57,091 nt of DNA from a virus (IMGVR_UViG_2534681675_000025:1-57091), one strand, 5' to 3'; shown: positions 7,296 through 27,268, counted from the first letter of the stretch. The notes: generated by a model from the sequence alone, not told the origin. Translations and numbers: made by a program.

Positions 7296-7340
7296 TGGTG
7301 GAGCTGGCGGGAGTTGAACCCGCGTCCGAAATTCCTACAT
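7296..7340 (-). other. ssrA: 3'-terminal 45 nt of ssrA (tmRNA) only; prophage attachment-site core, not a full tmRNA gene
   Basis: Reverse complement reads ATGTAGGAATTTCGGACGCGGGTTCAACTCCCGCCAGCTCCACCA (T-arm, acceptor 3' strand, CCA); upstream sequence diverges from tmRNA. Confidence 0.75.
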
Positions 7341-7472
7341 ACCATTTTTACTATAACAAAAACATGAACTTATGTTTAAAATCAGTATGTTAGTATTATT
7401 TTGTGTTTGTCTGTTTTACGCATTTTTAATGCTCTGCCGCCAAAATGCCGCCACTGGTTTTGCTTGGGAGAC

Positions 7473-8993: not shown

Positions 8994-9005
8994 AATAGGT
9001 CTCCA

Positions 9006-10019
9006 CTACAAATTATAAAGAGGATTTTTAGTCACCGCGTCTTCAAGGTGATCGGGCGAAAAGTGGGCGTAAATCATGGTCATTTTTATATCGGCATGAC
9101 CCAAAATATCACGCAGTACCAGTATGTTTCCGCCGTTCATCATAAAGTGACTGGCGAATGTATGGCGAAGCACGTGGGTGCATTGGCCCTCCGGTAGGTC
9201 AATACCGGCCCGCTTTACTGCCCGCTCAAAGGCTTTTCTGCATGGCGTGAATAACTTTCTTCTGTTTTTGGGGAGTTCATCATACAGATCCTGAGATATC
9301 GGCACAGTACGGTTTTTCTTGCCTTTTGTTTTTGTATAAGTAATTCGGTATTTCGATATTTGATGGCCCTGCAGATTTTCGGCTTCACTCCACCGTGCGC
9401 CAGTAGCCAGGCATATTTTTGCAATCATTAGTAAGCTAGGGCTTTGAGATTCAGCACATGCCGCCAACAGGCGCTTGATTTCGTCCGTGGAAAGAAAAGC
9501 CAGCTCACCTTCGGCAATTTTGAAGGTCGGAAGTCCTGCCAGCGGGTTTGGTGCTGACCAGTGTCCTAGTTTTTTTAATGTACCGAACACAGATGATAGA
9601 TTGCGCTGTTCAAGGTTTACCGTGCGGGGCTTAACGGGCGACATCAGCGTGCCATCTTCATTTCGCACTTCACCTTTTAGCCGTGCTTCGCGGTATTTCG
9701 TAAAGTCACCGGCAGTCAGCTCTGAAGCGATGGGATCGCCCAGACCATTACAGATAATTCCAAGTTTCGCCATGAGTCGCTTGGGGTCTGCGAGTGTTTG
9801 ACCATACAGGGAATACCACAGCTCAATTAATTCTGATAGGTGTCGCCGATCTTCCTTTTCTCCCAGCCAAGGTTTCTTGTTTACCTCGTCCATGGTGAAA
9901 TTCTCAAACGCAATGGCTTCGCCTTTCGTCGCAAATTGTTTGCGTACGCGTTTGCCATCTCGCCCGTTTGGGTAGCATTCACATAACCACTTTCCGTTCG
10001 GCTGTTTTCTGATGGTCAT
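9006..10019 (-). CDS. int: Tyrosine integrase (P2 Int family)
   Basis: 337 aa; C-terminal HVLRHTFASHF...GH...MIYAH catalytic region; adjacent to repressor. Confidence 0.9.
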   Translation of the reverse strand: MTIRKQPNGKWLCECYPNGRDGKRVRKQFATKGEAIAFENFTMDEVNKKPWLGEKEDRRHLSELIELWYSLYGQTLADPKRLMAKLGIICNGLGDPIASELTAGDFTKYREARLKGEVRNEDGTLMSPVKPRTVNLEQRNLSSVFGTLKKLGHWSAPNPLAGLPTFKIAEGELAFLSTDEIKRLLAACAESQSPSLLMIAKICLATGARWSEAENLQGHQISKYRITYTKTKGKKNRTVPISQDLYDELPKNRRKLFTPCRKAFERAVKRAGIDLPEGQCTHVLRHTFASHFMMNGGNILVLRDILGHADIKMTMIYAHFSPDHLEDAVTKNPLYNL

Positions 10020-10020
10020 A

Positions 10021-10653
10021 TCAAAGGCTCTTAATGATTTTCAGTGCGCGGCCTATTACCTCAATGTCATCCAGTTCGCACTCAAACGATGAATCATCCT
10101 GATGCACTACTAATCTGTTTCCCGGGAGTCGTGTCAATTTTACAATGCTTTTTATCCCGTCGATGTCCACTAACCACGTACCATTTACTGGTGGTGTTTG
10201 GTTGCGATCTATTAAATAAGAATCACCAGAAGTAGTCACCAGCAGCAGGTTGCTTGAGTCTGAGGGGAGTATGCTGCTATCAATGATTGCTTTTCCAGCA
10301 TCGATCAGCAAACCTCCGTTGAGAGTTGCCTTGTCAATTTCAGGAGATACAAGCTCCGAAAGAGGTTTAACTTTGCTAGAGTTCACGGAATTGATATTTT
10401 TTTTAGGGTCAATGTTTGAACCTGGATCGCCCTGTCCGGTAGTTAGCCACAGTAAAGAAACTCCTGTTTCCAAAGCGCACTGAATCACCCATTCTGCAGG
10501 AAAACTATCTCTTAAGTATCTGTTTGCCATAGTGCTTTTTGATGCGCCCAAGTGATCGCAAAGTTGCTGTCTGGACTTGAAATCATAGGCTGCCATTAGC
10601 CTATGGATAGCCTCTCTTCCCCCTGTATTCTCGCCAGCTTTTACTTGTATCAT
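10021..10653 (-). CDS. cI: CI-type prophage repressor (186 CI-like, two-domain)
   Basis: 210 aa, N-terminal HTH-like region, divergent from the lytic promoter, immediately upstream of int. Confidence 0.75.
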   Translation of the reverse strand: MIQVKAGENTGGREAIHRLMAAYDFKSRQQLCDHLGASKSTMANRYLRDSFPAEWVIQCALETGVSLLWLTTGQGDPGSNIDPKKNINSVNSSKVKPLSELVSPEIDKATLNGGLLIDAGKAIIDSSILPSDSSNLLLVTTSGDSYLIDRNQTPPVNGTWLVDIDGIKSIVKLTRLPGNRLVVHQDDSSFECELDDIEVIGRALKIIKSL

Positions 10654-10665
10654 TTTTTAATCCTG

Positions 10666-10717
10666 TTGACGTATCAAATATTGGATCGTAGTATCTTGGT
10701 GTATCAAATATTGAATC
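10666..10717 (+). promoter_or_regulatory. Rightward lytic promoter (pR-like) with two 17-bp direct-repeat operator copies
   Basis: TTGACG (10666-10671), 17-nt spacer, TAGTAT (10689-10694); repeats gtatcaaatattgRatc at 10671-10687 and 10701-10717. Confidence 0.55.
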
Positions 10718-10772
10718 AAATAAAACAAGATAAAACGACGTAAACCAAACCTTAATCGAGAGATACTGCACT

Positions 10773-11021
10773 ATGAGCAACGACATTTCAATTCGTGTAC
10801 CAAAAGTGATGGCGACACCAGCTGAGTTCGCGGAATGGGAAGGCCGCTCTCGCGGTTCGGTATATCAAATGATTCATAATGGTAAACTCGCTAAATTCTT
10901 GGAAAGAAAAGAAAAACCGAAAGACAGAGTATGTATACGTTACCTTGAGTACAAAAAGGAACAAGTCAGGAAAAACATGGGCCAATCCAATTTCAACTTT
11001 AATGTCATCGTTGGTGACTAA
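10773..11021 (+). CDS. Apl/Cox-like small DNA-binding protein (excision/transcriptional control)
   Basis: 82 aa, first gene of the rightward operon opposite the repressor, as apl in 186 or cox in P2. Confidence 0.55.
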   Translation: MSNDISIRVPKVMATPAEFAEWEGRSRGSVYQMIHNGKLAKFLERKEKPKDRVCIRYLEYKKEQVRKNMGQSNFNFNVIVGD

Positions 11022-11053
11022 GTTCAATTATGAGAACTTTCTAAGGGGGCAGC

Positions 11054-11563
11054 ATGTTTGATTACAAGATTTCCAAACATCCGCATTTTGATGAAGCCTG
11101 TAGAGCTTTTGCACTACGTCACAATATGGCAAAGCTGGCAGAACGTGCAGGAATGAATGTTCAGACACTGCGAAACAAACTCAATCCAGAGCAACCGCAT
11201 CAGCTCACCGCACCAGAAATCTGGTTGCTTACCGATCTGACTGAAGATTCAACGTTGGTAGACGGTTTTCTGGCACAGATTCATTGTCTGCCATGTGTTC
11301 CGATTAATGAGGTGGCAAAAGAGAAACTGCCGCATTACGTCATGAGTGCAACTGCAGAGATCGGGCGTGTTGCTGCAGGTGCGGTATCTGGCGATGTAAA
11401 AACCAGTGCAGGTCGTCGTGATGCTATCAGCAGCATTAACTCTGTAACACGACTGATGGCGCTGGCGGCTGTTTCATTGCAGGCCCGTTTACAGGCTAAT
11501 CCTGCGATGGCAAGTGCAGTTGATACTGTAACTGGCCTCGGTGCGTCATTCGGTTTGCTGTGA
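11054..11563 (+). CDS. cII: Phage 186 CII-like regulatory protein
   Basis: 169 aa, begins MFDYKISKHPHFDEACRAFALRHNMAKLAERAGMNVQTLRNKLNPEQPH, matching 186 CII as I recall it. Confidence 0.75.
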   Translation: MFDYKISKHPHFDEACRAFALRHNMAKLAERAGMNVQTLRNKLNPEQPHQLTAPEIWLLTDLTEDSTLVDGFLAQIHCLPCVPINEVAKEKLPHYVMSATAEIGRVAAGAVSGDVKTSAGRRDAISSINSVTRLMALAAVSLQARLQANPAMASAVDTVTGLGASFGLL

Positions 11564-11570
11564 GGTGCTT

Positions 11571-11771
11571 ATGCTGACGAAAGAACCATCATTTGCATCG
11601 CTGCTGGTAAAACAAAGCCCGGCAATGCACTACGGTCACGGCTGGATCATGGGGGAGGATGGTAAACGCTGGCATCCGTGCCGTTCACAAGATGAATTGC
11701 TGGCAGAACTATCTACGAAAAAACGGGGGAACAAATGGCTATTGAAGGCGCTGCGGCGACTGTTCCATTAA
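11571..11771 (+). CDS. Hypothetical early protein
   Basis: ATG at 11571 directly after cII stop; 66 aa. Confidence 0.45.
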   Translation: MLTKEPSFASLLVKQSPAMHYGHGWIMGEDGKRWHPCRSQDELLAELSTKKRGNKWLLKALRRLFH

Positions 11772-12076
11772 GCCCCGGTGAACGCCTGAATGGACTTAAC
11801 CATATTGCGGAGTTAAGGGCGAAAGTATTTGGCCTGAATATTGAGTCAGAGCTTGAGCGGTTTATTAAAGATATGCGTGATCCACGGGATATCAATAACG
11901 AACAAAATAAACGGGCACTGGCTGCTATATTCTTTATGGCAAAAATTCCAGCTGAACGTCATAGCATCAGCATTAATGAGCTGACCACTGACGAAAAGCG
12001 GGAGTTGATTAAAGCAATGAATCATTTTCGTGCAGTGGTGAGCTTATTTCCCAGACGGCTAACCATGCCGAATTAA
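11735..12076 (+). CDS. Hypothetical early protein
   Basis: 113-aa ORF in the early operon. Confidence 0.5.
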   Translation: MAIEGAAATVPLSPGERLNGLNHIAELRAKVFGLNIESELERFIKDMRDPRDINNEQNKRALAAIFFMAKIPAERHSISINELTTDEKRELIKAMNHFRAVVSLFPRRLTMPN

Positions 12077-12143
12077 CCAACTAATGAAATTAATGGCGTA
12101 AACCCGCCGGGTATCCCTTTATCTAAATTCAGGAGAATTGATT

Positions 12144-12377
12144 ATGCGTAATATTGAAACCCTCACGACTAAAACCGGACCGGATGATGCAGGGCTTAAT
12201 ATTTTACTGACAGAGGCTCGTCTGGAAGAACGCCGGGCAAGGGCTGAAGCAATGGCAGCTCGCCTTGATAGCCTGGCGTGTCATATCACATCCCGCCAGC
12301 TAAACCACGTCGAAGCAGCAGAACTACTGCGTGTAACTGCTGAAGCAATCCAGAACGAAGCGCAGGAGATCCACTAA
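12144..12377 (+). CDS. Hypothetical early protein
   Basis: ATG at 12144 preceded by AGGAGA; 77 aa. Confidence 0.5.
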   Translation: MRNIETLTTKTGPDDAGLNILLTEARLEERRARAEAMAARLDSLACHITSRQLNHVEAAELLRVTAEAIQNEAQEIH

Positions 12378-12604
12378 TGGCTGATGCAATGGATCTTGTA
12401 CAGCAGCGCGTTGAAGAAGAACGCCAGCGCCATATCCGTGCTGCCCGTGCCAAAACGCCGGGCGTGTCCCGCGTGCTTTGCATTGAGTGTGAAGCGCCAA
12501 TTCCGCCAGCACGCCGCCGCGCCATTCCAGGTGTGCAGCTTTGCATTACCTGTCAGGAAATCGCAGAACTGAAAGGCAAACATTACAACGGAGGTGCTGT
12601 ATGA
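12377..12604 (+). CDS. TraR/DksA-family C4 zinc-finger protein
   Basis: 75 aa with CIECEAPI...CITCQ (four Cys); common small early gene in P2-like phages. Confidence 0.7.
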   Translation: MADAMDLVQQRVEEERQRHIRAARAKTPGVSRVLCIECEAPIPPARRRAIPGVQLCITCQEIAELKGKHYNGGAV

Positions 12605-13458
12605 GCACCATCCTGAAATGGGCGGGAAATAAAACCGCCATTATGTCCGAACTGAAAAAACACCTTCCTGCTGGCCCGCGACTGGTTGAACCTTTCGCGG
12701 GTTCCTGTGCTGTGATGATGGAGACGGATTACCCCAGCTATCTGGTTGCGGATATTAATCCTGATTTAATCAACCTCTATAAAAAGGTTGCCGCTGATTG
12801 TGAATCGTTTATATCTCGCGCCAGAGTTTTATTTGAGATCGCAAACAGGGAGGTGGCTTATTACAACATAAGGCAGGAGTTTAATTACTCCACTGAAATT
12901 ACTGATTTCATGAAAGCGGTATATTTCCTGTATCTCAATCGTCACGGTTACCGTGGTTTATGTCGCTATAACAAGAGCGGGCATTTCAACATTCCCTACG
13001 GTAATTATAAAAATCCGTATTTCCCTGAAAAAGAAATTCGCGCATTTGCAGAAAAAGCCCAGCGGGCAACGTTTATCTGCGCCAGCTTTGATGAAACGCT
13101 GGCGATGTTGAAGGCGGGGGATGTGGTGTATTGCGATCCGCCGTATGACGGCACGTTTTCCGGTTATCACACTGACGGCTTCACTGAAGATGACCAGTAT
13201 CACCTGGCATCCGTTCTTGAACATCGGTCATCAGAAGGACATCCGGTCATTGTTTCTAACAGTGACACATCCCTGATCCGTTCGCTGTATCGCAATTTTA
13301 CTCACCACTACATCAAGGCAAAACGCAACATCGGTGTGGCAGCTGGCGAGGGTAAATCAGCAACAGAAATCATTGCTGTTTCCGGGCCGCGCTGCTGGGT
13401 GGGATTTGATTATTCGCGTGGCGTGGACAGTTCTGCCGTGTACGGAGTACGTGCATGA
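12601..13458 (+). CDS. dam: DNA adenine methyltransferase (Dam-like, N6-adenine)
   Basis: Begins [11 protein letters not shown]; contains DPPY motif ([10 protein letters not shown]) and N-terminal SAM-binding region FAGSCAV. Confidence 0.85.
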
Positions 13459-15869
13459 GTCATGCCGATATGAACAACTGCTGCGGCTTTAACGAGGCTA
13501 CCGCAGCATTCTCATGGAACAGCCCGAAAAAGGCCATTAACCCTTATCTGGACCCGGCGGAAGTTGCGCCGGTTTCTGCGCTTTCAAACCTGATCACTCT
13601 GTACGCTGCCGATAACGAGCAGGAACAACTGCGCCGTGAGGCACTGAGTGATCAGGTCTGGGAGCGTTATTTCTTTAATGAATCCCGTGATCCTGTCCAG
13701 CGCGAAATGGAGCAGGATAAGCTAATTAGCCGGGCAAAGCTGGCGCATGAGCAGCAGCGTTTTAATCCAGACATGGTCATTCTGGCGGATGTCAACGCCC
13801 AGCCTTCCCATATCAGCAAGCCGCTGATGCAACGTATTAAATACTTCAGCAACCTGGGCAGGCCAAAGGCTTATTCCCGCTATTTGCGTGAGACGATTAA
13901 GCCATGCTTGGAACGACTGGAGCATGTACGCGACAGCCAGCTATCTGCATCTTTTCGTTTTATGGCAAGCCATGAAGGGCTGGACGGTCTGCTGATCCTG
14001 CCTGAAATGAGTCAGGATCAGGTGAAACGCCTGTCCACCCTTGTCGCTGCGCATATGAGCATGTGTCTTGATGCCGCTTGTGGTGATTTGTACGCCTCCG
14101 ATGATGTTAAGCCGGAAGAAATCCGCAAGACATGGGAAAAGGTGGCAGCAGAAACCCTGCGACTGGATGTCATACCGCCTGCGTTTGAGCAACTCCGCCG
14201 GAAAAGAAACCGCCGCAAACCTGTGCCCTATGAACTCATTCCGGGTTCGCTGGCGCGTATGCTGTGCGCCGACTGGTGGTATCGGAAATTATGGAAGATG
14301 CGTTGCGAATGGCGGGAAGAGCAGTTGCGTGCTGTCTGTCTGGTCAGCAAAAAAGCATCTCCCTATGTCAGCTATGAAGCCGTGATGCATAAACGTGAGC
14401 AGCGCCGTAAGTCGCTGGAGTTTTTCCGTTCTCATGAACTGGTGAACGAAGACGGCGACACGCTGGACATGGAGGATGTGGTAAACGCCAGCAGCAGCAA
14501 CCCTGCGCATCGCCGCAATGAGATGATGGCCTGTGTTAAAGGCCTGGAGCTTATCGCGGAAATACGCGGTGACTGCGCCGTTTTCTACACCATCACCTGT
14601 CCGTCACGTTTCCATTCCACGCTAAATAACGGCAGGCCCAACCCGACCTGGACAAATGCGACGGTAAGACAAAGCAGTGATTATCTGGTTGGCATGTTTG
14701 CTGCATTTCGTAAGGCGATGCACAAAGCCGGATTGCGCTGGTATGGCGTGCGGGTGGCTGAGCCGCATCATGACGGTACAGTTCACTGGCACCTGTTGTG
14801 TTTTATGCGCAAAAAAGATCGCCGCGCCATTACTGCTTTGTTGCGTAAGTTTGCCATTCGTGAAGACCGCGAGGAGCTGGGGAATAACACGGGACCACGC
14901 TTTAAGTCTGAGTTGATTAACCCGCGCAAAGGAACGCCGACAAGCTACATCGCGAAATATATCAGTAAGAACATTGACGGGCGTGGTCTGGCTGGCGAGA
15001 TCAGCAAGGAAACGGGTAAATCCCTGCGTGATAACGCTGAATACGTGAATGCCTGGGCGTCTCTGCATCGTGTTCAGCAATTCCGCTTCTTTGGCATTCC
15101 GGGGCGTCAGGCTTACCGTGAACTGCGATTGCTGGCTGGTCAGGCGGCAAGGCAACAGGGTGACAAAAAAGCAGGTGCGCCGGTACTGGATAACCCGCGC
15201 CTTGATGCAATCCTGGCTGCTGCTGATGCTGGTTGTTTTGCCACCTACATCATGAAGCAGGGCGGCGTACTGGTTCCCCGTAAATATCACCTCATCAGAA
15301 CCGCTTATGAAATCAACGAAGAGCCAACCGCCTATGGCGATCACGGTATTCGTATTTATGGCATCTGGTCACCCATTGCAGAGGGCAAGATCTGCACTCA
15401 TGCAGTGAAGTGGAAAATGGTTCGTAAGGCCGTTGACATTCAGGAGGCGGCAGCCGACCAGGGCGCTTGCGCCCCTTGGACTCGTGGCAATAACTGTCCC
15501 CTTGCTGAAAATTTGAACCAACAGGAGAAAGATAAATCAGCTGATGGGGGCCCCAGAACGGACTTTACCCGCATGGATGACAAGGAGTTGCACGATTACC
15601 TGCACAGTATGAACAAAAAGGGGCGCCGGGAACTGGCTGCAAGGTTACGTCTGGTGAAACCGAAACGGCGTAGAGACTACAAACAGCGAATTACAGACCA
15701 TCAACGACAGCAGCTCGTCTATGAACTGAAATCCAGAGGATTTGATGGCAGCGAGAAAGAGGTCGATTTACTCCTTCGCGGCGGCAGTATTCCGTCAGGA
15801 GCAGGCCTGCGTATCTTCTATCGGAACCAGCGTTTGCAGGAAGATGATAAGTGGCGGAACCTGTATTAA
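13455..15869 (+). CDS. A: Replication initiation endonuclease (P2 gene A family, rolling-circle initiator)
   Basis: 804 aa; conserved region [16 protein letters not shown] and HxH region HWHLLCF typical of P2/186 A proteins. Confidence 0.9.
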
Positions 15870-15962
15870 TTACGCTGGTTAACAATTCGTGCTCTTAATA
15901 ATACCAGGCATATCAGGCTGATAAGCGTAAAAAAAACGTTTTACATCAGTAAGATTATTATA

Positions 15963-15982
15963 TACTGTAAATATAAACAGTG
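15963..15982. promoter_or_regulatory. Candidate LexA (SOS) box upstream of the DinI-like module
   Basis: tactgtaaatataaacagtg = CTGT-N8-ACAG consensus, about 45 bp upstream of the 16024 ORF. Confidence 0.55.
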
Positions 15983-16023
15983 GTTATACATACAGCATTG
16001 CGTGTGGTGTCATAGGAGGAAAG

Positions 16024-16212
16024 ATGCAGGACTATTTTTTGGAGTCTTTGAAGCTCCAGCGCATTGATTTTTTTCTTAAGCTTGTAGCGGCTAGTGAGTG
16101 TAGTGATGAAGAGAAGGGGCTGGCTCTGCAGTGGGTTTCTGAATTGACTGATGAACTCATGGCAAAAATCAGAAGCCACGAATACAACCGCTCAATGGAT
16201 GTCATCAGCTGA
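16024..16212 (+). CDS. Hypothetical small protein, possibly Tum-like antirepressor N-terminal part
   Basis: 62-aa ORF downstream of the LexA box and immediately upstream of the DinI-like gene. Confidence 0.4.
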   Translation: MQDYFLESLKLQRIDFFLKLVAASECSDEEKGLALQWVSELTDELMAKIRSHEYNRSMDVIS

Positions 16213-16222
16213 GGTGACTTTT

Positions 16223-16456
16223 ATGCGCATTGAAATAATGATCGATAAAGAGCAGAAGATTAGCCAGTCTACCCTGGACGCCCTTGAATCCGAGCTTTAC
16301 CGCAATCTGCGCCCCCTGTATCCCAAAACGGTAATCCGTATCCGTAAAGGTAGCTCTAACGGTGTGGAACTGACCGGACTGCAACTGGACGAAGAAAGAA
16401 AACAAGTGATGAAAATTATGCAGAAGGTGTGGGAAGACGACAGCTGGCTGTATTGA
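16223..16456 (+). CDS. DinI-family protein
   Basis: 77 aa, MRIEIMIDKEQ...VWEDDSWLY, resembles DinI (MRIEVTI...WESADDWF). Confidence 0.75.
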   Translation: MRIEIMIDKEQKISQSTLDALESELYRNLRPLYPKTVIRIRKGSSNGVELTGLQLDEERKQVMKIMQKVWEDDSWLY

Positions 16457-16569
16457 TTTTGTCAATAGACGCTTGTTTTTACTAATCAAAAAGGGTTACA
16501 TATGAGTGAGAGGCGATGTCAATCAGATATCGCCTTGTTTTTTGTCAAGAAAAGAATAATAGGCTAAAA

Positions 16570-17247
16570 ATGAAAATTAATAATGTAGCGTTACCAATAT
16601 CTCTTGCTGTAATCCTAACTGGTTGCGTGCCACATGCTTCTAACCGAAATATCACTGCTATTGAAGTGGTGAAGCCTGCTATTGGGCAAAGTGCTACCGC
16701 CTACATGGGCGATCCCATTATCACATCTGCTACTGGATTTAAAACGGACGTACTAGAACTTGGTGCGGCTAATGGTGCATTGTCTTCTATCGCTGCTGGT
16801 ACATATTGCAGTGAGGGGAATGGAATTTACCGCAATTATCATAACCCTCAAGCTGTTGCGTTAAAAAATCTCTATGGGCAAATCGGTAACTATGTTGATT
16901 ATGTTAGTTACGATGCTGCAAAAAATGAGATATCACCGCCAAATGGTACTTCTTATACTGCATCAGAAATTTCTATCAAACGTGTTCCTGATGGGCTGTG
17001 TCGAGTTAGTAACTCATTGGTTAAGACTATCGAATACAATGGAAATGCAGGCGGTGTAATGAAGTTCACCTATCGTGAATTTGCAAACGATATGGCTCGT
17101 GCAGCATTTACAACAGATTTTTCTGTAGATTCTAAGGGAAGTGACGTTATCGCTTACAAAGGTGCCAAGTTCAAAGTGAACAAGGCTGATAACTCGTCTA
17201 TTTCTTATACAATTATTTCTGGCTTTGACAAGGCTGTCACGTTCTAG
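16570..17247 (+). CDS. Predicted lipoprotein, function unknown (cargo)
   Basis: MKINNVALPISLAVILTGC lipobox signal; 225 aa; lies between the replication gene and cos. Confidence 0.7.
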   Translation: MKINNVALPISLAVILTGCVPHASNRNITAIEVVKPAIGQSATAYMGDPIITSATGFKTDVLELGAANGALSSIAAGTYCSEGNGIYRNYHNPQAVALKNLYGQIGNYVDYVSYDAAKNEISPPNGTSYTASEISIKRVPDGLCRVSNSLVKTIEYNGNAGGVMKFTYREFANDMARAAFTTDFSVDSKGSDVIAYKGAKFKVNKADNSSISYTIISGFDKAVTF

Positions 17248-17350
17248 GTTTCACGCTTACTGAGTATGTTACGATTTTGCACATTCTGCATAAGCGCGCA
17301 TGTCTATGCTGCATGAGATCGCATGATCGTTTGAGGATCTTTTGTGTTAA

Positions 17351-17375
17351 GGCCCGCCAGTTCTGGCGGGCTTTT
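17351..17375 (+). terminator. Putative terminator after the lipoprotein gene
   Basis: ggcccgccag-ttc-tggcgggc stem followed by tttt. Confidence 0.5.
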
Positions 17376-17420
17376 GCGTAGATCATGCAGGTGCATGAAA
17401 ACCACTACATAAAGCGGGCA

Positions 17421-17439
17421 GGCGTGGCGGGGATACGAG
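17421..17439 (+). other. Candidate cos (cohesive end) site of prophage 1
   Basis: ggcgtggcggggatacgag followed by cgcgcgct; resembles the P2/186 cohesive-end sequence as I recall it (GGCGAGGCGGGGAAAGCAC then TGCGCGCT). Confidence 0.5.
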
Positions 17440-17549
17440 CGCGCGCTCATGGTTGAATTAATGAAATTATGGTGTTAAATAGGCTAGCTTTTTAAGTCGT
17501 GAATATTCAATTTTTCAACTCATTTTTTTCATAGGGAGGAGTAATTGAC

Positions 17550-18248
17550 ATGGTTATGTTAGTGGATGACTGTCCACGATGTGGATCACAAAAAATAGCG
17601 TTTGATGTTAATGGGCTGAATTGCACTAGGGTTTACAATGCATTGGGCGGGGGTAAAACATACGAGTACGAGGTCTATTGTGTTTGCCGAGAGTGTCATA
17701 AAACGACAATGTTTCTTTGCAGACCTTTAACGAAAAATAAAACTTTAGATGGCTATAATTGGGAAAGTGGAATATTCGGCTTAAAGGAAGTTGCAGAGGT
17801 TGTTAGGCCTATATCACCGGCAGACTTAGCAGTAGAGGAGCCACCAGAGTTCTTACCTGAGCATATCAATAGTGCATATGAGGAAGGGGCGAAATGTTTG
17901 GCTATAGGTTGTTATAATGCAGCAGCAACCATGTTTAGGCTTTGCCTTGATTATGCCACAAAAGGACTTCTTCCTGATGGGGAGCAAGGGCCTGCGCAAA
18001 AAATAAGGAGAAGCCTAGGGTTAAGAATGGAGTGGTTATTTGATAATCATCTACTGCCTGAAGCTTTAAGGGAACTAGCTGAATGCGTTAAAGATGACGG
18101 AAATGATGGAGCGCATGAAGGTATTTTGGATAAAGCTGCTGCTGAGGATCTTGAAGATTTTACCTATCTTTTTTTAGAACGGCTTTACACTGAACCTCAA
18201 CGCCTTATCGAAGCCAAGACAAGGCGTGAACAAAGAAGAAACAAATAA
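17550..18248 (+). CDS. Zinc-ribbon plus alpha-helical domain protein (possibly DUF4145-like), inserted between cos and Q
   Basis: 232 aa; N-terminal CPRCG...CVCRECH four-Cys ribbon; RBS gggagga before ATG; convergent with Q, 3' ends 8 bp apart. Confidence 0.7.
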   Translation: MVMLVDDCPRCGSQKIAFDVNGLNCTRVYNALGGGKTYEYEVYCVCRECHKTTMFLCRPLTKNKTLDGYNWESGIFGLKEVAEVVRPISPADLAVEEPPEFLPEHINSAYEEGAKCLAIGCYNAAATMFRLCLDYATKGLLPDGEQGPAQKIRRSLGLRMEWLFDNHLLPEALRELAECVKDDGNDGAHEGILDKAAAEDLEDFTYLFLERLYTEPQRLIEAKTRREQRRNK

Positions 18249-18256
18249 GTTCGGAA

Positions 18257-19294
18257 TTATTCTTCTGAAAGAATATAGGGCGTAAATTTAATCACTTCTT
18301 CGCCCAGCCAGTCGTTCAGCTCTTGTAGCCTTTTTTGCAAGGGAGTTAATTCATTACGTACAAATACGCGACTGGCCTTCTCCACATCCCCAAACCCTCC
18401 AACATTATTAGGCATAATCCCCATCATTTGCGGCGGCACGCGGTGCGCAGCCATCATGTCGTCGCGGCTGACATTTTTGATATTCAAAAACTCATCCTTC
18501 GCCGCGACTTCTGACAATGGGATGATCTGAAGCCCGTCTTTTTTGCCGTTAGGCGAGTACATAAACAGGTTGCGGAAGTTGCCTGGACCTTTGGCGCTTT
18601 TCATCGCATTGCGGAGGTTGTTCACATCCTCCTGGTTTTGCGCGGCATCGGTCATGTACATGATAAAGCCCGCATGACTGCCGTTAATGTAATACTTGCG
18701 ACGGAACAGCGTGGCGGACTCGTTGAGCAGGGCTGACGGAATGGCAGAAAGATAACCGGGCAGGCCGTAGATCTCCTGATTAATATCCGGTTCCATCAGA
18801 TGAAAAATGCTGCCTTTCGTGAACTGATACGGCTGGGTTGTCATACCGTATTGCACAAACCAGTAGGTATCCAGGTCTAACCCGCGTCGGGTGTATTTTG
18901 CCAGTGCAGGCTCAAGGGCGATAACTTCACCGAAGCGGTTCGTGCGTTTCTCCAGGTAGGCGTTACCAAAAACCAGATAGTCCTGCACAAAACGCGAAAA
19001 AGCCTGCTGGCTGAGCAGCGGGTGAGGGATGTAGGTGCTGGTCAGAATGTTGCACTTTACTGCAATCGGGGAACTATGATGCACGGCAGCGCGGAAGGTG
19101 CGCGCCAGTCCGTCAAAGCTGACGGGCGGCTCATACCAGCGGTCCATCTGTACGCATTCCACATAATCCAGCAGTTCTCGGCGGTCCAGAACAGGAACGG
19201 GATCGCCGAAGCTGAATGCTTCGGCTGTAGTTTGACTTTTAAGCTGGATCTGTTTCGTCGCCGCAGCGCGGTTCTTCTTACTCTTTCCCATCAA
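18257..19294 (-). CDS. Q: Portal protein (P2 gpQ family)
   Basis: 345 aa, P2 Q-like sequence and position next to terminase P. Confidence 0.9.
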   Translation of the reverse strand: MMGKSKKNRAAATKQIQLKSQTTAEAFSFGDPVPVLDRRELLDYVECVQMDRWYEPPVSFDGLARTFRAAVHHSSPIAVKCNILTSTYIPHPLLSQQAFSRFVQDYLVFGNAYLEKRTNRFGEVIALEPALAKYTRRGLDLDTYWFVQYGMTTQPYQFTKGSIFHLMEPDINQEIYGLPGYLSAIPSALLNESATLFRRKYYINGSHAGFIMYMTDAAQNQEDVNNLRNAMKSAKGPGNFRNLFMYSPNGKKDGLQIIPLSEVAAKDEFLNIKNVSRDDMMAAHRVPPQMMGIMPNNVGGFGDVEKASRVFVRNELTPLQKRLQELNDWLGEEVIKFTPYILSEE

Positions 19295-21057
19295 AAAATC
19301 TCCACAATATTGCTGGTATTGGCGGATTCGCCCTGCAGCGGTTCGTTAAACAGTGCGTGCATCGTTGCCCAGGCCAGATCGGCGTGGCTGGCTTCTTCGC
19401 TGCGGCTGGCTTCATAGGTCGGGCGGTTGCCACTGGCGGTGGTGGCGCGACGGATTGCCATAAAGGACTGCGCTATGTCGGTGTGTCCGGCGTCAAACTC
19501 CAGACGGCGGTGGCTGATAATGTCGTAGGCCTTGAGTACCAGGGCGTTTTTAACGTTGGGGTTGTAGACAAACTCCCGGACGGCAGGAAAAAACGCTTTC
19601 ACGTTCTCGTAAACCCCGTGACCAACGCCGGTTGAGTCGATACCGATATAGGTCACGTTGTACTGTTCGGTCAGTTTTTTGATGGCGTCAGCCTGGGCGC
19701 GGAAGTCCATTCCGCGCCACTGGTGACGCTCAAGAATGCGGAACTTACCGCCCGGCACGGCTGGCGGCGCCACCACCACGCATCCGGCGCTGTCGCCGTT
19801 CTGCGTACCTTTCGCCGGGTCATATCCGATCCACACTTCGCGCCAGCCAAACGGGCGCAGGGCCAGTGCATGAAAGTCGGTCCAGACTTCCCAACTGTCC
19901 ACCATGCACGCCTGCAGCTCGCTGAGCGGGAACACGGACGCGAGATCGTCCACGAACTCGCACATCAGCAGGTTCTGGTATTCGTCCGGGCTGTACTCCA
20001 TGCGCAACTGGTCAAGGTCGAACAGGTTACAGCCGCCGCGCACCGCATCTTCCACGGTGACTATCTGGCGGTACTGCCCGTCTGCGCACAGCAGGCCGGG
20101 GGCCAGATTGCTGTGGGACAGGTCGATGTCCACCTTATCGGCTTTGTTGCGCCCTCGGTTGAACAGCGCACCGGACCAGAACGGATAAGCACTGTGTGTC
20201 AGGCTGGATGGCGTGGAAAAATAGGTTTGTCGCCATTTTTTGTGAATAGCCATACCGGAAGCCACTTTGCGCAGCTCCTGGAATTTCGGTATCCAGAAAT
20301 ATTCATCCAGATACAGGTTGCCGTGGTAACTCTGGGCCGTGCGGGCATTGGTGCCGAGGAAGTAAAGCGTGGCCCCGTTAGGAAGCACCATCGGATCGCC
20401 TTTCAGCTCCACCTCGACTTCTTTGGCGAAGTCGATGATGTACTGCTTAAAGACGTGGGCCTGTGCCTTACTGGCGGAAAGGAAAATCTGGTTACGTCCG
20501 GTCAGCAGGGCGTCAATCAGGGCTTCACGGGCAAAGTAAAAGGTCGCGCCGATCTGGCGAGACTTCAGCAGGTTGCGGATGCGATTGGTTTTTCCGGCTT
20601 CCCACCAGTGGCGCTGGTAGTTGAACATGGAGGAATGGAAGATTTCTTCCAGCTTCTCAATCTGTTCATCGGTGAAAACATTCTTTTCCGGCTGACGGCG
20701 CGGCCCTTTGTTGCGGTTGGCGACGTTAGGGTTTAAGTCGGCTTCGTTGCCGCCATTGTTAAACTTGCCGATCCGCGCGTGGCGCTCCGACTGGCGCGCC
20801 AGCAGGTCAATTTCTTTGAAATCTTTCCCTTCTTTGTGCTCCTTCATAATGAGCTGGCAGTAGCGGGCGGCGGTGGTGAGCTGCATCTGATCCAGCGGCC
20901 CATAGTCACCCCACTTGTCGCGTTTTTTCCAGCTGTGAACGGTTGCAACTTTCTCGCCCAGCATTTCAGCAATGCGGGCTACGCGGTATCCCTGAAAGTA
21001 CAGCAGCATGGCCTGCCGACGGGGATCGAGATCTGCGGGTGTCAGTGTGGTGTTCAT
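19291..21057 (-). CDS. P: Terminase large (ATPase) subunit (P2 gpP family)
   Basis: 588 aa, overlaps Q start, divergent from capsid operon. Confidence 0.9.
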   Translation of the reverse strand: MNTTLTPADLDPRRQAMLLYFQGYRVARIAEMLGEKVATVHSWKKRDKWGDYGPLDQMQLTTAARYCQLIMKEHKEGKDFKEIDLLARQSERHARIGKFNNGGNEADLNPNVANRNKGPRRQPEKNVFTDEQIEKLEEIFHSSMFNYQRHWWEAGKTNRIRNLLKSRQIGATFYFAREALIDALLTGRNQIFLSASKAQAHVFKQYIIDFAKEVEVELKGDPMVLPNGATLYFLGTNARTAQSYHGNLYLDEYFWIPKFQELRKVASGMAIHKKWRQTYFSTPSSLTHSAYPFWSGALFNRGRNKADKVDIDLSHSNLAPGLLCADGQYRQIVTVEDAVRGGCNLFDLDQLRMEYSPDEYQNLLMCEFVDDLASVFPLSELQACMVDSWEVWTDFHALALRPFGWREVWIGYDPAKGTQNGDSAGCVVVAPPAVPGGKFRILERHQWRGMDFRAQADAIKKLTEQYNVTYIGIDSTGVGHGVYENVKAFFPAVREFVYNPNVKNALVLKAYDIISHRRLEFDAGHTDIAQSFMAIRRATTASGNRPTYEASRSEEASHADLAWATMHALFNEPLQGESANTSNIVEIF

Positions 21058-21199
21058 GGCACAAACCTACAGCCTTGAATGAAGGCTTTCCCCGCCTGCG
21101 GTTTGTGTGGTTGTCGGTACAAATACCGCGCATTGTTTCACTGCCCCCATCACCGCAACCATAAGGCTCCAGTAAGTTTTTTCTAACGGAGCACGGCTC

Positions 21200-22033
21200 A
21201 TGACAGTGAAAGCAAAGCGTTTTCGCATCGGGGTGGAAGGTGCCACTACCGACGGACGCGAAATCCAGCGTGAATGGCTGGAACAGATGGCAGCCAGCTA
21301 CAACCCGGCGGTGTATACCGCGCTGATTAACCTTGAGCACATTAAGTCTTATCTGCCGGACAGCACGTTTAACCGCTACGGCAAGGTGACGGCGCTGTTT
21401 GCTGAAGAAATCGCGGAAGGTCCGCTGGCAGGCAAGATGGCACTGTATGCCGACGTTGAGCCAACGGAGTCCCTGGTGGAACTGGTGAAAAAAGGCCAGA
21501 AATTATTCACCTCTATGGAAGTCAGCCCGAAGTTTGCTGATACGGGCAAAGCCTACCTGGTCGGCCTGGCTGCCACTGATGATCCCGCCAGTCTGGGTAC
21601 GGAAATGCTGACATTCAGCGCCAGTGCAGCCCATAACCCGCTGGCAAACCGCAAGCAGAATCCTGCCAATCTTTTTACCGCTGCAGAGGAAACGGTGATC
21701 GAACTGGAAGAAATCCAGGAGGACAAGCCGTCCCTGTTTGCCCGCGTCACGGCGCTGTTTACCAAAAAAGAGCAGTCCGATGACGTCCGGTTCTCTGATG
21801 TGCATAAGGCCGTGGAACTGGTCGCCACTGAGCAGCAGAACCTGAGCACGCGCACCGAAAAATCCCTGTCTGAGCAGGAAGAACGCCTGTCTGAGCTGGA
21901 GACTGCTCTGCAGGAGCAGCAAACCGCCTTTAACGAACTGGTGGATAAGCTGAGTCATGAAGACAGCCGCCAGGACTACCGCCAGCGTGCAACAGGCGGC
22001 AACGCCCCCGCTGACACTCTGACCAATTGCTGA
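21200..22033 (+). CDS. O: Capsid scaffolding protein (P2 gpO family)
   Basis: 277 aa; FRIGVEG...INLEH...YLVGLAATDDPASLGTE matches gpO. Confidence 0.85.
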   Translation: MTVKAKRFRIGVEGATTDGREIQREWLEQMAASYNPAVYTALINLEHIKSYLPDSTFNRYGKVTALFAEEIAEGPLAGKMALYADVEPTESLVELVKKGQKLFTSMEVSPKFADTGKAYLVGLAATDDPASLGTEMLTFSASAAHNPLANRKQNPANLFTAAEETVIELEEIQEDKPSLFARVTALFTKKEQSDDVRFSDVHKAVELVATEQQNLSTRTEKSLSEQEERLSELETALQEQQTAFNELVDKLSHEDSRQDYRQRATGGNAPADTLTNC

Positions 22034-22049
22034 TGGAGCATAAAACCCA

Positions 22050-23108
22050 ATGAAGAAGAATACCCGTTTTGCTTTTAACGCTTACCTGCAGCAACTGGCG
22101 CGTCTGAACGGTGTGGCAGTTGAGGAACTGTCCAGCAAGTTCACCGTAGAGCCGTCTGTGCAGCAGACGCTGGAAGACCAGATCCAGCAGTCCGCCGCTT
22201 TCCTGACGCTGATTAACGTCACGCCAGTGACTGAGCAGTCCGGTCAGCTGCTTGGATTGGGTGTTGGCAGCACCATTGCCGGAACCACTGACACCACCGC
22301 GAAAGAGCGTGAACCTGTCGATCCGACGCTGATGATCGATGTGGAATACAAATGCGAACAGACCAACTTTGACACGGTGCTGACCTACGCGAAGCTGGAC
22401 CTGTGGGCGAAGTTTCAGGATTTCCAGGTGCGTATCCGTGACGCCATCGTGAAACGCCAGGCACTGGACCGCATCATGATCGGCTTTAACGGCGTGAAGC
22501 GTGCGAAAACCTCCAACCGTAGCGAAAACCCGCTGCTGCAGGATGTGAACAAAGGCTGGCTGCAGAAAATCCGTGAGGATGCACCGGATCACGTCATGGG
22601 CAGCACCACCACGGGCGGTGAAACCACACCGGGTGCGGTGAAAGTCGGGAAAGGTGGCGAATATGCCAACCTGGACGCCGTGGTGATGGATGCGGTCAAT
22701 GAGCTTATCGACGTGGTCTACCAGGACGATGACGATCTGGTGGTGATTTGCGGTCGTGAGCTGCTGTCTGACAAGTATTTCCCGCTGGTCAACAAAGAGC
22801 AGGAAAACAGTGAAAAACTGGCTGCCGATATGATCATCAGTCAGAAACGCATGGGTGGCCTGCAGGCCGTGCGTGCGCCGTTCTTCCCGCCGAATGCGCT
22901 GCTGATCACCCGTCTGGATAACCTGTCCATTTACTGGCAGGAAGACACCCGCCGCCGTTCGGTTATCGACAACCCGAAACGTGACCGGATTGAAAATTTT
23001 GAATCCGTTAACGAAGCCTATGTGGTTGAGGACTACCGCTGCGCCGCACTGGTGGAAAACATCCAGATTGGCGACTTCAGCGCCGCCGCAGCAGAAACCG
23101 GAGCGTAA
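22050..23108 (+). CDS. N: Major capsid protein (P2 gpN family)
   Basis: 352 aa, position after O. Confidence 0.9.
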   Translation: MKKNTRFAFNAYLQQLARLNGVAVEELSSKFTVEPSVQQTLEDQIQQSAAFLTLINVTPVTEQSGQLLGLGVGSTIAGTTDTTAKEREPVDPTLMIDVEYKCEQTNFDTVLTYAKLDLWAKFQDFQVRIRDAIVKRQALDRIMIGFNGVKRAKTSNRSENPLLQDVNKGWLQKIREDAPDHVMGSTTTGGETTPGAVKVGKGGEYANLDAVVMDAVNELIDVVYQDDDDLVVICGRELLSDKYFPLVNKEQENSEKLAADMIISQKRMGGLQAVRAPFFPPNALLITRLDNLSIYWQEDTRRRSVIDNPKRDRIENFESVNEAYVVEDYRCAALVENIQIGDFSAAAAETGA

Positions 23109-23111
23109 ACC

Positions 23112-23762
23112 ATGAGCCTGAGTCCCGCACGGCAGCATCGCCTGCGCGTTCAGGCTGAACAGGCCGCCCGCGAGGGCGGCAGCGTTCGCCACGCGTCGGG
23201 CTATGACCTGATGCTGCTGCAACTGGCAGAAGACCGCCGCCGTCTCAAGGGCGTTCAGTCCACGGTCAAAAAAGCGGAAATCAAGGTGGAGCTGCTGCCG
23301 AAATACGCCGCCTGGGCGGAGGGTGTCCTGGCTGCCGGAGGCGCTCAACAGGATGACGTGCTGATGTACGTGATGCTGTGGCGCATTGATGCCGAAGATT
23401 ATGTCGGAGCGCTGGAGATCGGGCGTCATGCCCTGCGTCATGGCTGGGTGATGCCGCTGGGTAACCGCAACGTGCAGACCGTGCTGGCAGAGGAAATGGC
23501 AGACGCAGCGCAGAGCGCAATGCTTGCCACTACCGGCTTTGATGTCGATCTGCTGCTGCAGACGCTGGAGCTGACAGACGGTCTGGATATGCCGGACCAG
23601 TCACGGGCGCGTCTGCATAAAGCGATTGGCGCTGTCCTGAGTGAAAGTAATCCGGCTTCCGCCCTTAATCATCTCAACCATGCGTTACAGCTCGATCCCC
23701 GCTGTGGCGTGAAAAAAGACAAACAGCAGCTGGAGCGCAGACTGCGCAATGACAGCCGCTGA
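23112..23762 (+). CDS. M: Terminase small/endonuclease subunit (P2 gpM family)
   Basis: 216 aa, position after N. Confidence 0.8.
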   Translation: MSLSPARQHRLRVQAEQAAREGGSVRHASGYDLMLLQLAEDRRRLKGVQSTVKKAEIKVELLPKYAAWAEGVLAAGGAQQDDVLMYVMLWRIDAEDYVGALEIGRHALRHGWVMPLGNRNVQTVLAEEMADAAQSAMLATTGFDVDLLLQTLELTDGLDMPDQSRARLHKAIGAVLSESNPASALNHLNHALQLDPRCGVKKDKQQLERRLRNDSR

Positions 23763-23857
23763 CAGAACGTGCCCCCGCGCACGGGCGGCACGGGGTGGCG
23801 AAAGGCACTGCCACATCAAAACCCCGTCCACCGCCCTTTATTTCAGGAGAAAGCAGC

Positions 23858-24322
23858 ATGAAGTTTGTTGCGCCAGAACAGGCACCGGAACAGGCGGAAA
23901 TCATCAGAAATACGCCGTTCTGGCCTGATGTGGACCTGTCGGAGTTTCGCAGTGTCATGCGCACTGACGGCACGGTGACGCAGCCGCGTTTAAAGCAGGT
24001 TGCGCTGTCGGCAATTTCGGAGGTCAACGCAGAGCTGTATGAGTTTCGCAGACGCCAGCAGATGCTGGGGTATGCCTCGCTGGCAGAAGTCCCGGCGGAA
24101 CAACTGGACGGCAAAAGCGAGCGCATTCAGCACTATTTCAACGCGGTTTACTGCTGGGCACGCGCCATGCTCAACGAACGTTACCAGGACTATGACGCCA
24201 CGGCATCCGGTGCGAAGCGAGGCGAGGAACTGGCGGAAGCAAGCGGTGATTTATGGCGTGACGCCCGCTGGGCCATCAGCCGGGTGCAGGATGCGCCGCA
24301 CTGCACAGTGGAGCTTATCTGA
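23858..24322 (+). CDS. L: Head completion protein (P2 gpL family)
   Basis: ATG at 23858 (MKFVAPEQ...) with upstream AGGAGA; position after M. Confidence 0.8.
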   Translation: MKFVAPEQAPEQAEIIRNTPFWPDVDLSEFRSVMRTDGTVTQPRLKQVALSAISEVNAELYEFRRRQQMLGYASLAEVPAEQLDGKSERIQHYFNAVYCWARAMLNERYQDYDATASGAKRGEELAEASGDLWRDARWAISRVQDAPHCTVELI

Positions 24323-24525
24323 TGAAAGTGCGTGCGCATCAGTATGACACGGTGGACGCACTTTGCTGGCGTCATTACGGGCGCACGCAGGGTGTCACGG
24401 AGCAGGTACTGAAGGCAAATCCGGGGCTTGCCGAATACGGCCCCTTTTTACCTCTCGGGCTGCAGGTGGAGCTGCCGGACATTCCGACAACCACCACCGT
24501 GCAGACCGTCCAGCTATGGGACTGA
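24322..24525 (+). CDS. X: Tail protein X (P2 gpX family)
   Basis: 67 aa, MKVRAHQYDTVDALCWRHYG...; homologous copy in prophage 2. Confidence 0.8.
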   Translation: MKVRAHQYDTVDALCWRHYGRTQGVTEQVLKANPGLAEYGPFLPLGLQVELPDIPTTTTVQTVQLWD

Positions 24526-24528
24526 ATT

Positions 24529-24744
24529 ATGACGCTTGAGCGAATCAGCGCCTTTATCACGTATTGCATCGCCGTCGTGCTGGCCTGGCTGGGCGATTTG
24601 TCCATCAAGGATGCCTCAACGCTGGGCGGCCTGATGATTGGTGTGCTGATGCTGGCTATCAACTGGTACTACAAACACAAAGCCTACCAGCTTCTGCGCG
24701 ACGGGCAGATTTCGCGGGAGGACTATGAATCCATCAATCGTTAA
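24529..24744 (+). CDS. Putative holin
   Basis: 71 aa, two hydrophobic segments, directly upstream of the endolysin. Confidence 0.6.
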   Translation: MTLERISAFITYCIAVVLAWLGDLSIKDASTLGGLMIGVLMLAINWYYKHKAYQLLRDGQISREDYESINR

Positions 24745-25240
24745 ACGCTGCCTTGTCGGAGCCGTGCTGGCTATTGCTGCCACGCTGCCGGGGTTTCAGC
24801 AGCTTCACACCTCCGTGGAGGGGCTGAAACTGATTGCCGATTACGAAGGTTGTCGTCTGCAGCCGTATCAGTGCAGCGCGGGTGTCTGGACCGACGGCAT
24901 TGGAAATACGTCGGGCGTCATTCCCGGCAAAACAATCACGGAACGACAGGCAGCAGAAGGGCTTATTTCCAACGTGCTGCGTGTGGAGCGGGCGCTGGAA
25001 AGGTGTGTGAAGCAACAGCCGCCGCAGAAGGTATATGACGCTACGGTGTCGTTTGCCTTCAACGTGGGAACGGGCAATGCCTGCAGTTCTACGCTGGTGA
25101 AATTGCTCAATCAGCGGCGCTGGGCAGAAGCGTGCCGACAGTTGCCGCGCTGGGTTTATGTGAAAGGTGTGTTTAATCAGGGGCTGGATAACCGCCGTGC
25201 GCGGGAGATGGCCTGGTGCCTTAAAGGAGCTGGATTATGA
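24725..25240 (+). CDS. K: Endolysin, phage lysozyme type (P2 gpK-like)
   Basis: 171 aa; YEGCRLQPYQCSAGVWTDGIGNT lysozyme-type catalytic region. Confidence 0.85.
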   Translation: MNPSIVKRCLVGAVLAIAATLPGFQQLHTSVEGLKLIADYEGCRLQPYQCSAGVWTDGIGNTSGVIPGKTITERQAAEGLISNVLRVERALERCVKQQPPQKVYDATVSFAFNVGTGNACSSTLVKLLNQRRWAEACRQLPRWVYVKGVFNQGLDNRRAREMAWCLKGAGL

Positions 25241-25665
25241 CGCGTGCGCTGGCGGTAGTGGCGGCGCTGGCACTCGTTGCGCTGGGCTGGCAGTCGTGGC
25301 GGCTTAACAGCGCCAGCCACACCATCGAAACGCAGCGCGCGGCGCTGAAAAGTAAAGCGCACGAACTAACGAAGAAAAATAGCCAGCTGATCAGTCTGTC
25401 CATTCTGGCTGAAACCAATAACAGGGAGCAGGCGCGGCTCTATGCCGAAGCAGAACAGACCAGCGCGCTGCTGAGACAACGACAACACCGGATCGAGGAA
25501 CTGAAACGTGAGAACGAGGATTTACGCCGCTGGGCTGATACTCCTTTGCCTGCTGACATTATCCGGCTGCGGGAACGTCCGGCACTCACCGGAGGTGCAG
25601 CTTACCGTCAGTGGTTGTCCGCGAGTGACGCCGTGTCGGCTGGAGCAGGCAGCGCCGCGCACTAA
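25237..25665 (+). CDS. Rz-like i-spanin (LysB-like)
   Basis: 142 aa, N-terminal transmembrane segment then coiled-coil-like region, after the endolysin. Confidence 0.65.
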   Translation: MTRALAVVAALALVALGWQSWRLNSASHTIETQRAALKSKAHELTKKNSQLISLSILAETNNREQARLYAEAEQTSALLRQRQHRIEELKRENEDLRRWADTPLPADIIRLRERPALTGGAAYRQWLSASDAVSAGAGSAAH

Positions 25666-25798
25666 CGGTGATCTGAACGCATTGCTGGATGAAACGGAGG
25701 CCGCCTGGGCGGTCTGTGCAGACAAAGTGGACATGATTATTGCGTGTCAGGAGCGAAACAGTGAACAAACCACAATCCCTGCGCCACGCCCTCAATAA
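25508..25798 (+). CDS. Rz1-like o-spanin lipoprotein (LysC-like), overlapping LysB in another frame
   Basis: Lipobox LTLSGC, Pro-rich; embedded/overlapping arrangement typical of spanin pairs. Confidence 0.5.
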   Translation: MRTRIYAAGLILLCLLTLSGCGNVRHSPEVQLTVSGCPRVTPCRLEQAAPRTNGDLNALLDETEAAWAVCADKVDMIIACQERNSEQTTIPAPRPQ

Positions 25799-26637: not shown

Positions 26638-26642
26638 AATGT

Positions 26643-27212: not shown

Positions 27213-27268
27213 TTACCACACAAGGACGTATTGATGCCATAGATTCAAGGTCCGTGCAACCTAACCCT

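Follow-up and report, generated by a model that had tools for sequence, protein, structure and literature searches.

The window, by which we mean the whole 57,091-nt stretch of DNA analysed here, holds a P2-like prophage in which a gene for a 232-aa protein occupies the space between a putative cos site and the portal gene Q (Table 1). The cos-like 19-mer, GGCGTGGCGGGGATACGAG, is followed directly by CGCGCGCT and occurs once in the window even when up to four mismatches are tolerated. It aligns with the cosR/cosL junction of P2, and the flanks are kept on both sides (aggtgcatNaaaacc...aagcgggcNggcgNggcgggga...gcgcgct). The record of Escherichia phage Cartapus (OV696611), which is prophage 4 of the AIEC strain LF82, begins with the same bases, annotated there as 'putative cos site', and the alignment of window positions 17389-30755 with Cartapus 1-13367 shows 99.9% identity. 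The cos region is conserved across nine divergent loci. A stretch of about 35 nt to the right of cos is partly conserved and was considered as a promoter; judged by the alignments with P2 and with other loci, it looks like a part of cos instead.

The sequence-only reading had described the cos-like sequence, a gene convergent with Q and separated from it by 8 bp, and the absence of any gene at the corresponding place in P2. All three statements stand. The coordinates of the two genes agree with this arrangement, and in P2 the interval contains only cosL (1-19) and the terminator tQ (160-181) before the end of Q at position 187, a cos-Q space of only 167 bp. Relative to Cartapus the prophage is a mosaic: the near-identity extends from cos through the tail genes, the sequences are unalignable after position 30755 in the tail-fibre region, and the early region (7296-16450) is only 87-94% identical.

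Table 1. Coordinates of genes, protein domains and sequence features around the cos site of the prophage
Feature	Position	Strand	Basis
P2-like prophage gene A (replication)	13455-15869	+	ORF
Cargo on the A-gene side: 62-aa ORF, DinI-family gene (16223-16456), 243-aa ORF (16516-17247)	16024-17247	+	ORFs
Rho-independent-type terminator hairpin closing the A-side cargo operon	17349-17375	+	RNA fold
Conserved cos region, including the 19-nt cohesive-end sequence	17389-17465	.	P2 cosR/cosL alignment, Cartapus annotation
P2-type cos 19-mer	17421-17439		sequence
AT-rich leader of the cargo gene	17466-17549	+	sequence
Gene for the 232-aa RAZR-like protein (zinc ribbon and DUF4145/HEPN)	17550-18248	+	ORF, profile matches
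Residues 1-57, Cys4 zinc-ribbon domain (C8, C11, C46, C49), presumed sensor	17550-17720	+	invariant Cys, AF2 model
Residues 58-95, hypervariable linker	17721-17834	+	column entropy, highest in the protein (2.57 bits)
Residues 96-215, HEPN (DUF4145) domain, presumed RNase effector	17835-18194	+	
Codons K181-H189 (KDDGNDGAH), equivalent of RAZR R146-x7-H154	18090-18116	+	alignment to 9y9c chain OA and RAZR family
Spacer between the convergent stop codons of the 232-aa gene and Q	18249-18256	.	8 bp, sequence
Portal gene Q, conserved; bounds the slot on the right	18257-19294	-	Pfam Phage_portal E=3.6e-18; Cartapus annotation
Large terminase gene P	19291-21057	-	ORF

A strong Shine-Dalgarno sequence (GGGAGGAG, 17534-17541) lies 8 nt before the ATG of the gene, within a leader that is not conserved between alleles. 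A scan for the sigma-70 consensus upstream of the gene gave no site on the plus strand. Similarly, no terminator was found between the gene and Q, and the segment 18215-18300 folds no better than its shuffles on either strand (z = -0.24 and -0.32). In P2, in contrast, tQ follows Q, a signal that has no counterpart in the window, where the two convergent genes are so closely spaced. Given the 8-bp spacing and the lack of a stable hairpin, transcripts of the gene and of Q should run antisense into each other, and read-through from the late operon, converging on the gene, might lower its expression while the prophage itself grows lytically.

On the other side of cos, downstream of gene A, lies a second cargo module, in which the DinI-family gene is well matched (E=6.6e-23) and the 243-aa ORF has no Pfam or PADLOC match. 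The product of the latter carries a lipoprotein-type signal (…LAVILTGC…). The operon is closed by the hairpin GGCCCGCCAG-ttct-CTGGCGGGC followed by TTTT, with a folding energy of -26.3 kcal/mol (z = -4.7; none of 200 shuffles was as stable). The segment 17300-17447 is 98-100% conserved in Fels-2, RE2010 and P2-like phages of Klebsiella. Other prophages with an identical DUF4145 gene carry, to the left of cos, either a pair of genes for proteins of 86 and 203 aa or a gene for a 239-aa protein with a faint HNH match. Since different left-hand genes accompany an identical DUF4145 gene, the A-side and Q-side modules are exchanged independently.

Two further ORFs of the prophage were noted. A 505-aa ORF on the minus strand (7473-8990) adjoins the integrase gene (9006-10019) and has no Pfam or PADLOC match; Cartapus has a different gene at this site, for a putative RES/NAD+-binding protein, and cargo or defence genes may have a second site here, at the int-att end. 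A 188-aa ORF (26643-27209, minus strand), which lies on the opposite strand inside the late-gene block, corresponds to CARTA_14 of Cartapus, a 'hypothetical protein', and likewise has no Pfam or PADLOC match. Its position suggests another moron site.

We surveyed 80 IMG/VR loci with a portal at least 94% identical to that of the window; cos could be placed in 77 of the 80. The cos-Q gap varies from 174 to 3515 bp (median 1693 bp), the lower value corresponding to an empty, P2-like slot. These 77 loci represent 40 gene arrangements and 59 protein clusters. A plus-strand gene is present in the slot in 75 of the loci and a minus-strand ORF in one more; slot genes are nearly all on the strand convergent with Q. 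The gene of the window was found in only two of the 77 close relatives; at this site the others carry genes unrelated to it. Of the ten commonest cargo families, eight are known or candidate defence proteins, with strong matches to PADLOC models (retron I-C RT-Toprim, retron II-A NDT and RT, ShosA, PDC-M03A, PDC-S06, PDC-S49, and IetS), and in annotated E. coli genomes the same place is occupied by genes for a KAP-type P-loop NTPase, a PIN protein, and an AAA ATPase. The GC content of the cargo is 38-45%, against 50-63% in the core genes. Among 5426 complete E. coli genomes the cos core was found in 1253, where similarity to the window ends 6-20 bp to the right of the 19-mer, and the complete cos-gene-Q arrangement in 43.

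The cos-Q interval is the standard cargo site of this phage lineage, and P2 is the exception. The slot had been regarded as unusual in the sequence-only reading. The survey does not bear this view out, as most of the 77 related loci hold cargo there and the interval belongs to a gpA-gpQ hotspot already in the literature, where it is called 'adjacent to the cos site' (Rousset et al. 2022, PMC9122126) and listed as 'hotspot #1' (Vassallo et al. 2022, PMC9519451). DUF4145 arrangements at gpA-gpQ were already included in Table S5A of the former study (PMC9122126). The same reading had taken the gene for accessory cargo and a candidate for defence. Here it was well founded: the gene is rarely carried by close relatives and is not a core P2 function, it is replaced in them by unrelated, mostly defence-type genes, it lies between A and Q beside cos, and the composition of the cargo is atypical.

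Members of the protein family were identified on 75 viral contigs. In 50 of these the protein is at least 49% identical to that of the window, and 48 of the 50 carry a P2-type Q. On 45 of these 48 P2-like contigs, 14-48 bp separate the end of the gene from Q, with Q identities of 62-100%, and cos is usually found about 100-140 bp upstream of the gene. At Q identities of 87-92% the identity of the protein itself spans 57-88%; this variation at similar Q identity indicates that the alleles are shuffled or fast-evolving and not strictly co-inherited. The remaining 25, more distant members belong to other temperate phage types, where they are located upstream of the large terminase and portal genes, in Mu-like GemA neighbourhoods, or among tail genes. 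In Gordonia phage Meyran (ON724009) the homologue is gene 1 (94-783, plus strand), with the cohesive end of the genome on one side and the small terminase gene on the other, a position that parallels the cos-adjacent site of the P2-like phages. Burkholderia phage phiBt-TXDOH (OK095358) has a zinc-ribbon/DUF4145 homologue at 2501-3103 (plus strand) with 32% identity and the sequence VRLDGNDALH; the record gives instead a hypothetical protein on the opposite strand (2405-3310), probably a strand mis-call. The homologues POCJ13 gp20, phiBt-TXDOH, and Meyran gp1 all have weak scores with the PD-T7-4 model.

The constant location near cos and Q on the P2-like contigs, and the placement of the Meyran homologue beside the genome end and terminase, could be understood if the protein were a core or semi-core packaging accessory, sited by cos and the portal gene because it acts there. 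However, only two of the 77 closest relatives have the gene, the slot is empty in P2 and in one relative, the protein showed no similarity to known packaging proteins, and the fold is that of HEPN (see below). We consider this explanation extremely improbable.

The index of the public assembly collection lists the identical protein in 4680 blocks, and in all eight places shown it is encoded 8 bp from the portal gene. This widespread listing and the constant position indicate that the protein is maintained and not decaying. In E. coli A7 (NZ_CP028767; 1809-3460 of the extracted locus) an IS3 element stands in place of the 5' part of this gene, leaving a 116-aa 'DUF4145 domain-containing protein' beside the portal gene, which is the only disrupted copy seen. 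Being very common and present in the AIEC strain LF82, the identical protein may shape the phage susceptibility of clinical and gut E. coli.

The 232-aa protein is identical to CARTA_1 of Cartapus. It matches Pfam DUF4145 over residues 114-203 (E=4.5e-7; 30.3 bits against a gathering score of 23.1), has a single PADLOC match, to PD-T7-4, with a weak score of 26 bits (E=1.2e-6), and matches PHROG 1305 (phrog_1305; E=9.5e-53), labelled 'DNA binding protein'. A search of NCBIfam with the protein gave no match. A word-indexed search found 603 matches in its family of about 230-aa proteins, and the numbers of 50%-cluster representatives are 927, 334, and 137 at E-value thresholds of 1e-3, 1e-10, and 1e-30, respectively. 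The AF2 model built from the single sequence was unusable (pLDDT 39.5), and a model based on the family alignment, with pLDDT 91.9, was used instead.

Both domains that had been proposed from the sequence alone, an N-terminal four-Cys zinc ribbon and a possibly DUF4145-like C-terminal domain, are borne out by the family alignment and the model. The four cysteines are invariant in 36 of 36 close and 35 of 35 distant homologues, and the ribbon is modelled as beta-hairpins (strands 3-6, 16-30, 36-46, and 52-59) with pLDDT of 88-97. Fold searches with the model assigned the C-terminal domain to the HEPN fold, with its four-helix core. DUF4145 is a HEPN family in which the catalytic motif is 'mostly conserved (80%)', and a fusion with a zinc ribbon is among its described architectures (Anantharaman et al. 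2013). The other invariant residues are R130, R159, N185, and H189, and the signature reads C[VI][KR][DE]DGNDGAH. Mean column entropy is 1.90 bits in the zinc ribbon, 2.57 in the linker, and 0.95 in the HEPN domain.

The label of PHROG 1305 raises the question of whether the protein serves the phage itself, as a regulator or nucleic-acid-binding protein involved in lysogeny control, host takeover, or counter-defence, with no role as an immunity effector. Zinc ribbons are often nucleic-acid binders, HEPN domains also occur as non-catalytic modules, and homologues in several types of temperate phages are located near packaging or early genes. The label, however, is an annotation without experimental test, the catalytic histidine and the basic residue are conserved throughout the family, and the gene is dispensable in 75 of 77 sister prophages, which have defence genes in its place. 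A regulatory role is very unlikely.

The closest characterised relative of the protein is RAZR. This protein was described as PD-T7-4, a 'Zn finger-HEPN' defence protein (Vassallo et al. 2022, PMC9519451), and was later renamed ring-activated zinc-finger RNase (Zhang et al. Nature 2026, PMC13017515; PDB 9Y9C, 9Y6U). It consists of a Cys4 zinc-ribbon sensor and a DUF4145/HEPN RNase whose residues R146 and H154 are both needed for defence (PMC13017515). Linear RAZR oligomers curve into a 24-mer around the rings, about 170 Å across, formed by the phage portal or an Erf-like protein (Gp77); the activated enzyme cleaves single-stranded RNA nonspecifically, and abortive infection follows. The specificity of activation is set by the zinc-finger domain (PMC13017515).

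Alignment of profiles (hhalign) for 36 members of our family and 28 members of the RAZR family gave a match with 94% probability (E=1.5e-7) over 171 columns, extending from the CPxCG...CxxC ribbon through HEPN to the last C-terminal helix, with C8, C11, C46, and C49 aligned to C16, C19, C44, and C47 of RAZR. The RAZR family was gathered with the fragment aligned to 9y9c_OA. A profile of our family widened with three distant phage homologues matched this RAZR chain in PDB at E=2.2e-4, while phmmer with the single sequence and the narrow family profile both had no match in PDB. The identity to RAZR is 22-29% (25-29% by blastp, where one alignment covers residues 7-232). Fold searches with the AF2 model did not return 9Y9C. 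We are confident of homology to RAZR and of the HEPN fold; the relation is at the superfamily level and not a close one.

Examination of the alignment revealed a specific difference in the active site, where CRIVGNQAVH of RAZR (R146, H154) corresponds to VKDDGNDGAH (K181, H189). The usual motif of the HEPN superfamily is Rx4-6H, against K-x7-H in our protein; the wider spacing is that of the DUF4145 branch (R-x7-H in RAZR). Relative to RAZR the histidine and its distance are the same and arginine is replaced by Lys-181. This lysine is found in 36 of 36 close homologues, and among 35 representatives of 50% clusters the position is filled by Arg (22), Lys (12), or Gln (1); in the viral loci it is Lys in 63 and Arg in 8, and H189 is invariant. 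The R146A mutation abolishes defence by RAZR (PMC13017515), and a protein with Lys at this position might be taken for a catalytically dead relic without current function. Against this, Lys-181 is fixed in the close homologues and alternates almost only with Arg in the distant ones, the HEPN domain is strongly constrained, and the intact identical ORF is widespread, the sole disrupted copy seen being that cut by IS3. The nearly constant basic residue with interchange of Lys and Arg argues for a working active site, and a relic is highly improbable.

The second feature of RAZR that can be followed in the alignment is the inter-dimer salt bridge D179/D180-R184, which supports higher-order oligomers (PMC13017515). 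Residues aligned to D179, D180, and R184 are E210, R211, and E215, respectively, that is, opposite charges with reversed polarity. The pair D180/R184 is Asp/Arg in 20 of 28 RAZR-family members, and R211/E215 is Arg/Glu in 36 of 36 close and 19 of 35 distant homologues; charge-swapped exceptions occur at this pair in both families. These observations are compatible with a conserved salt bridge. They do not prove a RAZR-type oligomer, since the two residues stand at positions i and i+4 of one helix, and could form an intrahelical salt bridge instead of an interface.

Taken together, the location and the protein comparison lead us to propose that the gene is horizontally acquired cargo in a cos-proximal defence hotspot of a Cartapus/Fels-2-type prophage and encodes a single-protein, RAZR-like immunity factor, an interpretation that we consider on balance the probable one. 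The role in defence as such is rated somewhat higher, as probable, and the protein is most likely an abortive-infection RNase with a variable zinc-ribbon sensor. In the proposed mechanism, the variable Cys4 ribbon would recognise a protein of an invading phage, and the conserved DUF4145/HEPN domain would act as a latent RNase whose composite active site, formed by the dimer, includes K181 and H189. The trigger would lead to RNA cleavage, arrest of translation, and abortion of the infection, by which the lysogen population and the resident prophage would be protected. By analogy with RAZR we infer the RNase activity, abortive infection, higher-order oligomers, and assembly around a portal or Erf-like ring; the literature searched contained no experiments with this subfamily. 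Activation templated by a ring, as in RAZR, is the more doubtful part of this proposal and is put forward tentatively.

An alternative within the same general function is that the protein is a defence HEPN RNase with other sensing, the ribbon binding a monomeric phage protein or nucleic acid without ring-templated assembly. Its ribbon and linker are poorly conserved relative to RAZR, the linker being about 27 residues longer. The Zn finger of DS-38 (DefensePredictor, PMC13092281), a validated E. coli single-gene defence protein with the same two domain types, Zn finger and HEPN, reportedly does not superpose on that of PD-T7-4, and a distinct mechanism was proposed for it. The genomic niche also differs, as PD-T7-4 homologues usually overlap the integrase gene (PMC9519451). 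On the other hand, hhalign aligns the CPxCG...CxxC ribbon as well as the HEPN domain, and the charge pair at the RAZR inter-dimer contact is retained. We regard sensing of this different kind as unlikely.

Returning to ring-templated activation, the location of the gene 8 bp from a portal gene allows a more specific proposal. The hypervariable ribbon and linker would be tuned to portal or recombinase rings of foreign phages and blind to the resident gpQ, late transcription of P and Q would, for lack of a terminator between the convergent genes, silence the gene via antisense in the lytic cycle of the prophage itself, and the HEPN site would be of the Lys type. This combination is distinctly unlikely as a whole; if true, it would give a phage-borne portal detector an inbuilt means of telling self from non-self.

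Among known defence proteins, DS-38 (WP_001313577.1) was considered as a candidate for the same protein and was rejected, as it is encoded by 1101 bp and has about 366 aa against 232 aa. The 'putative HEPN' protein of pFR103 (Rousset) was rejected as well, having a different sequence. In BxaP (PMC10799925), Ishtar (bioRxiv 10.64898/2026.07.06.735840), and the type I R-M fusions (PMC3710099) the DUF4145/HEPN domain is likewise the presumed effector. There, however, DUF4145 is N-terminal, or is fused to HEAT, beta-rich, or REase/helicase modules, and the layout of zinc ribbon, linker, and HEPN occurs in none of them.

The genomic location resembles the P2 gpA-gpQ (old/tin) hotspot in being the same cos-adjacent interval with high turnover of cargo, low GC content, and many defence systems. 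It differs in that published studies treat A-Q as one interval, whereas here cargo flanks cos on both sides; in P2 the cargo (old, tin) is only on the A side. These results refine the view of the P2 hotspot: in this lineage most cargo is found between cos and the portal gene, and its exchange is independent of that on the A side. RAZR proper was not found in any of the 77 surveyed cos-Q slots.

With RAZR itself the protein shares the organisation as a single chain of about 220-230 aa with a zinc ribbon followed by DUF4145/HEPN, the basic residue, seven residues, and His within a GN..aH motif, and the combination of a variable zinc finger with a conserved HEPN domain. The linker of RAZR (residues 66-79) is short and conserved and packs on HEPN, and a deletion of three residues in it is harmful (PMC13017515). 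A short conserved linker was not found in our protein, where it is hypervariable and residues about 58-85 remain unaligned by hhalign. In addition, an 8-residue insert relative to RAZR holds the conserved R159, and the gene is located in the P2 cos-Q slot with no integrase overlap. With its Lys variant, long linker, reversed charge pair, and phage-borne niche, the 232-aa protein represents a distinct subfamily. To date RAZR, a sensor of phage portal rings, is the only zinc-ribbon/DUF4145 immunity protein that has been characterised. A divergent, phage-resident subfamily encoded beside a portal gene offers a natural test of how a foreign ring is discriminated from the phage's own, and of how much of the RAZR mechanism is essential with respect to Arg or Lys in the active site, the length of the linker, and the oligomer contacts.
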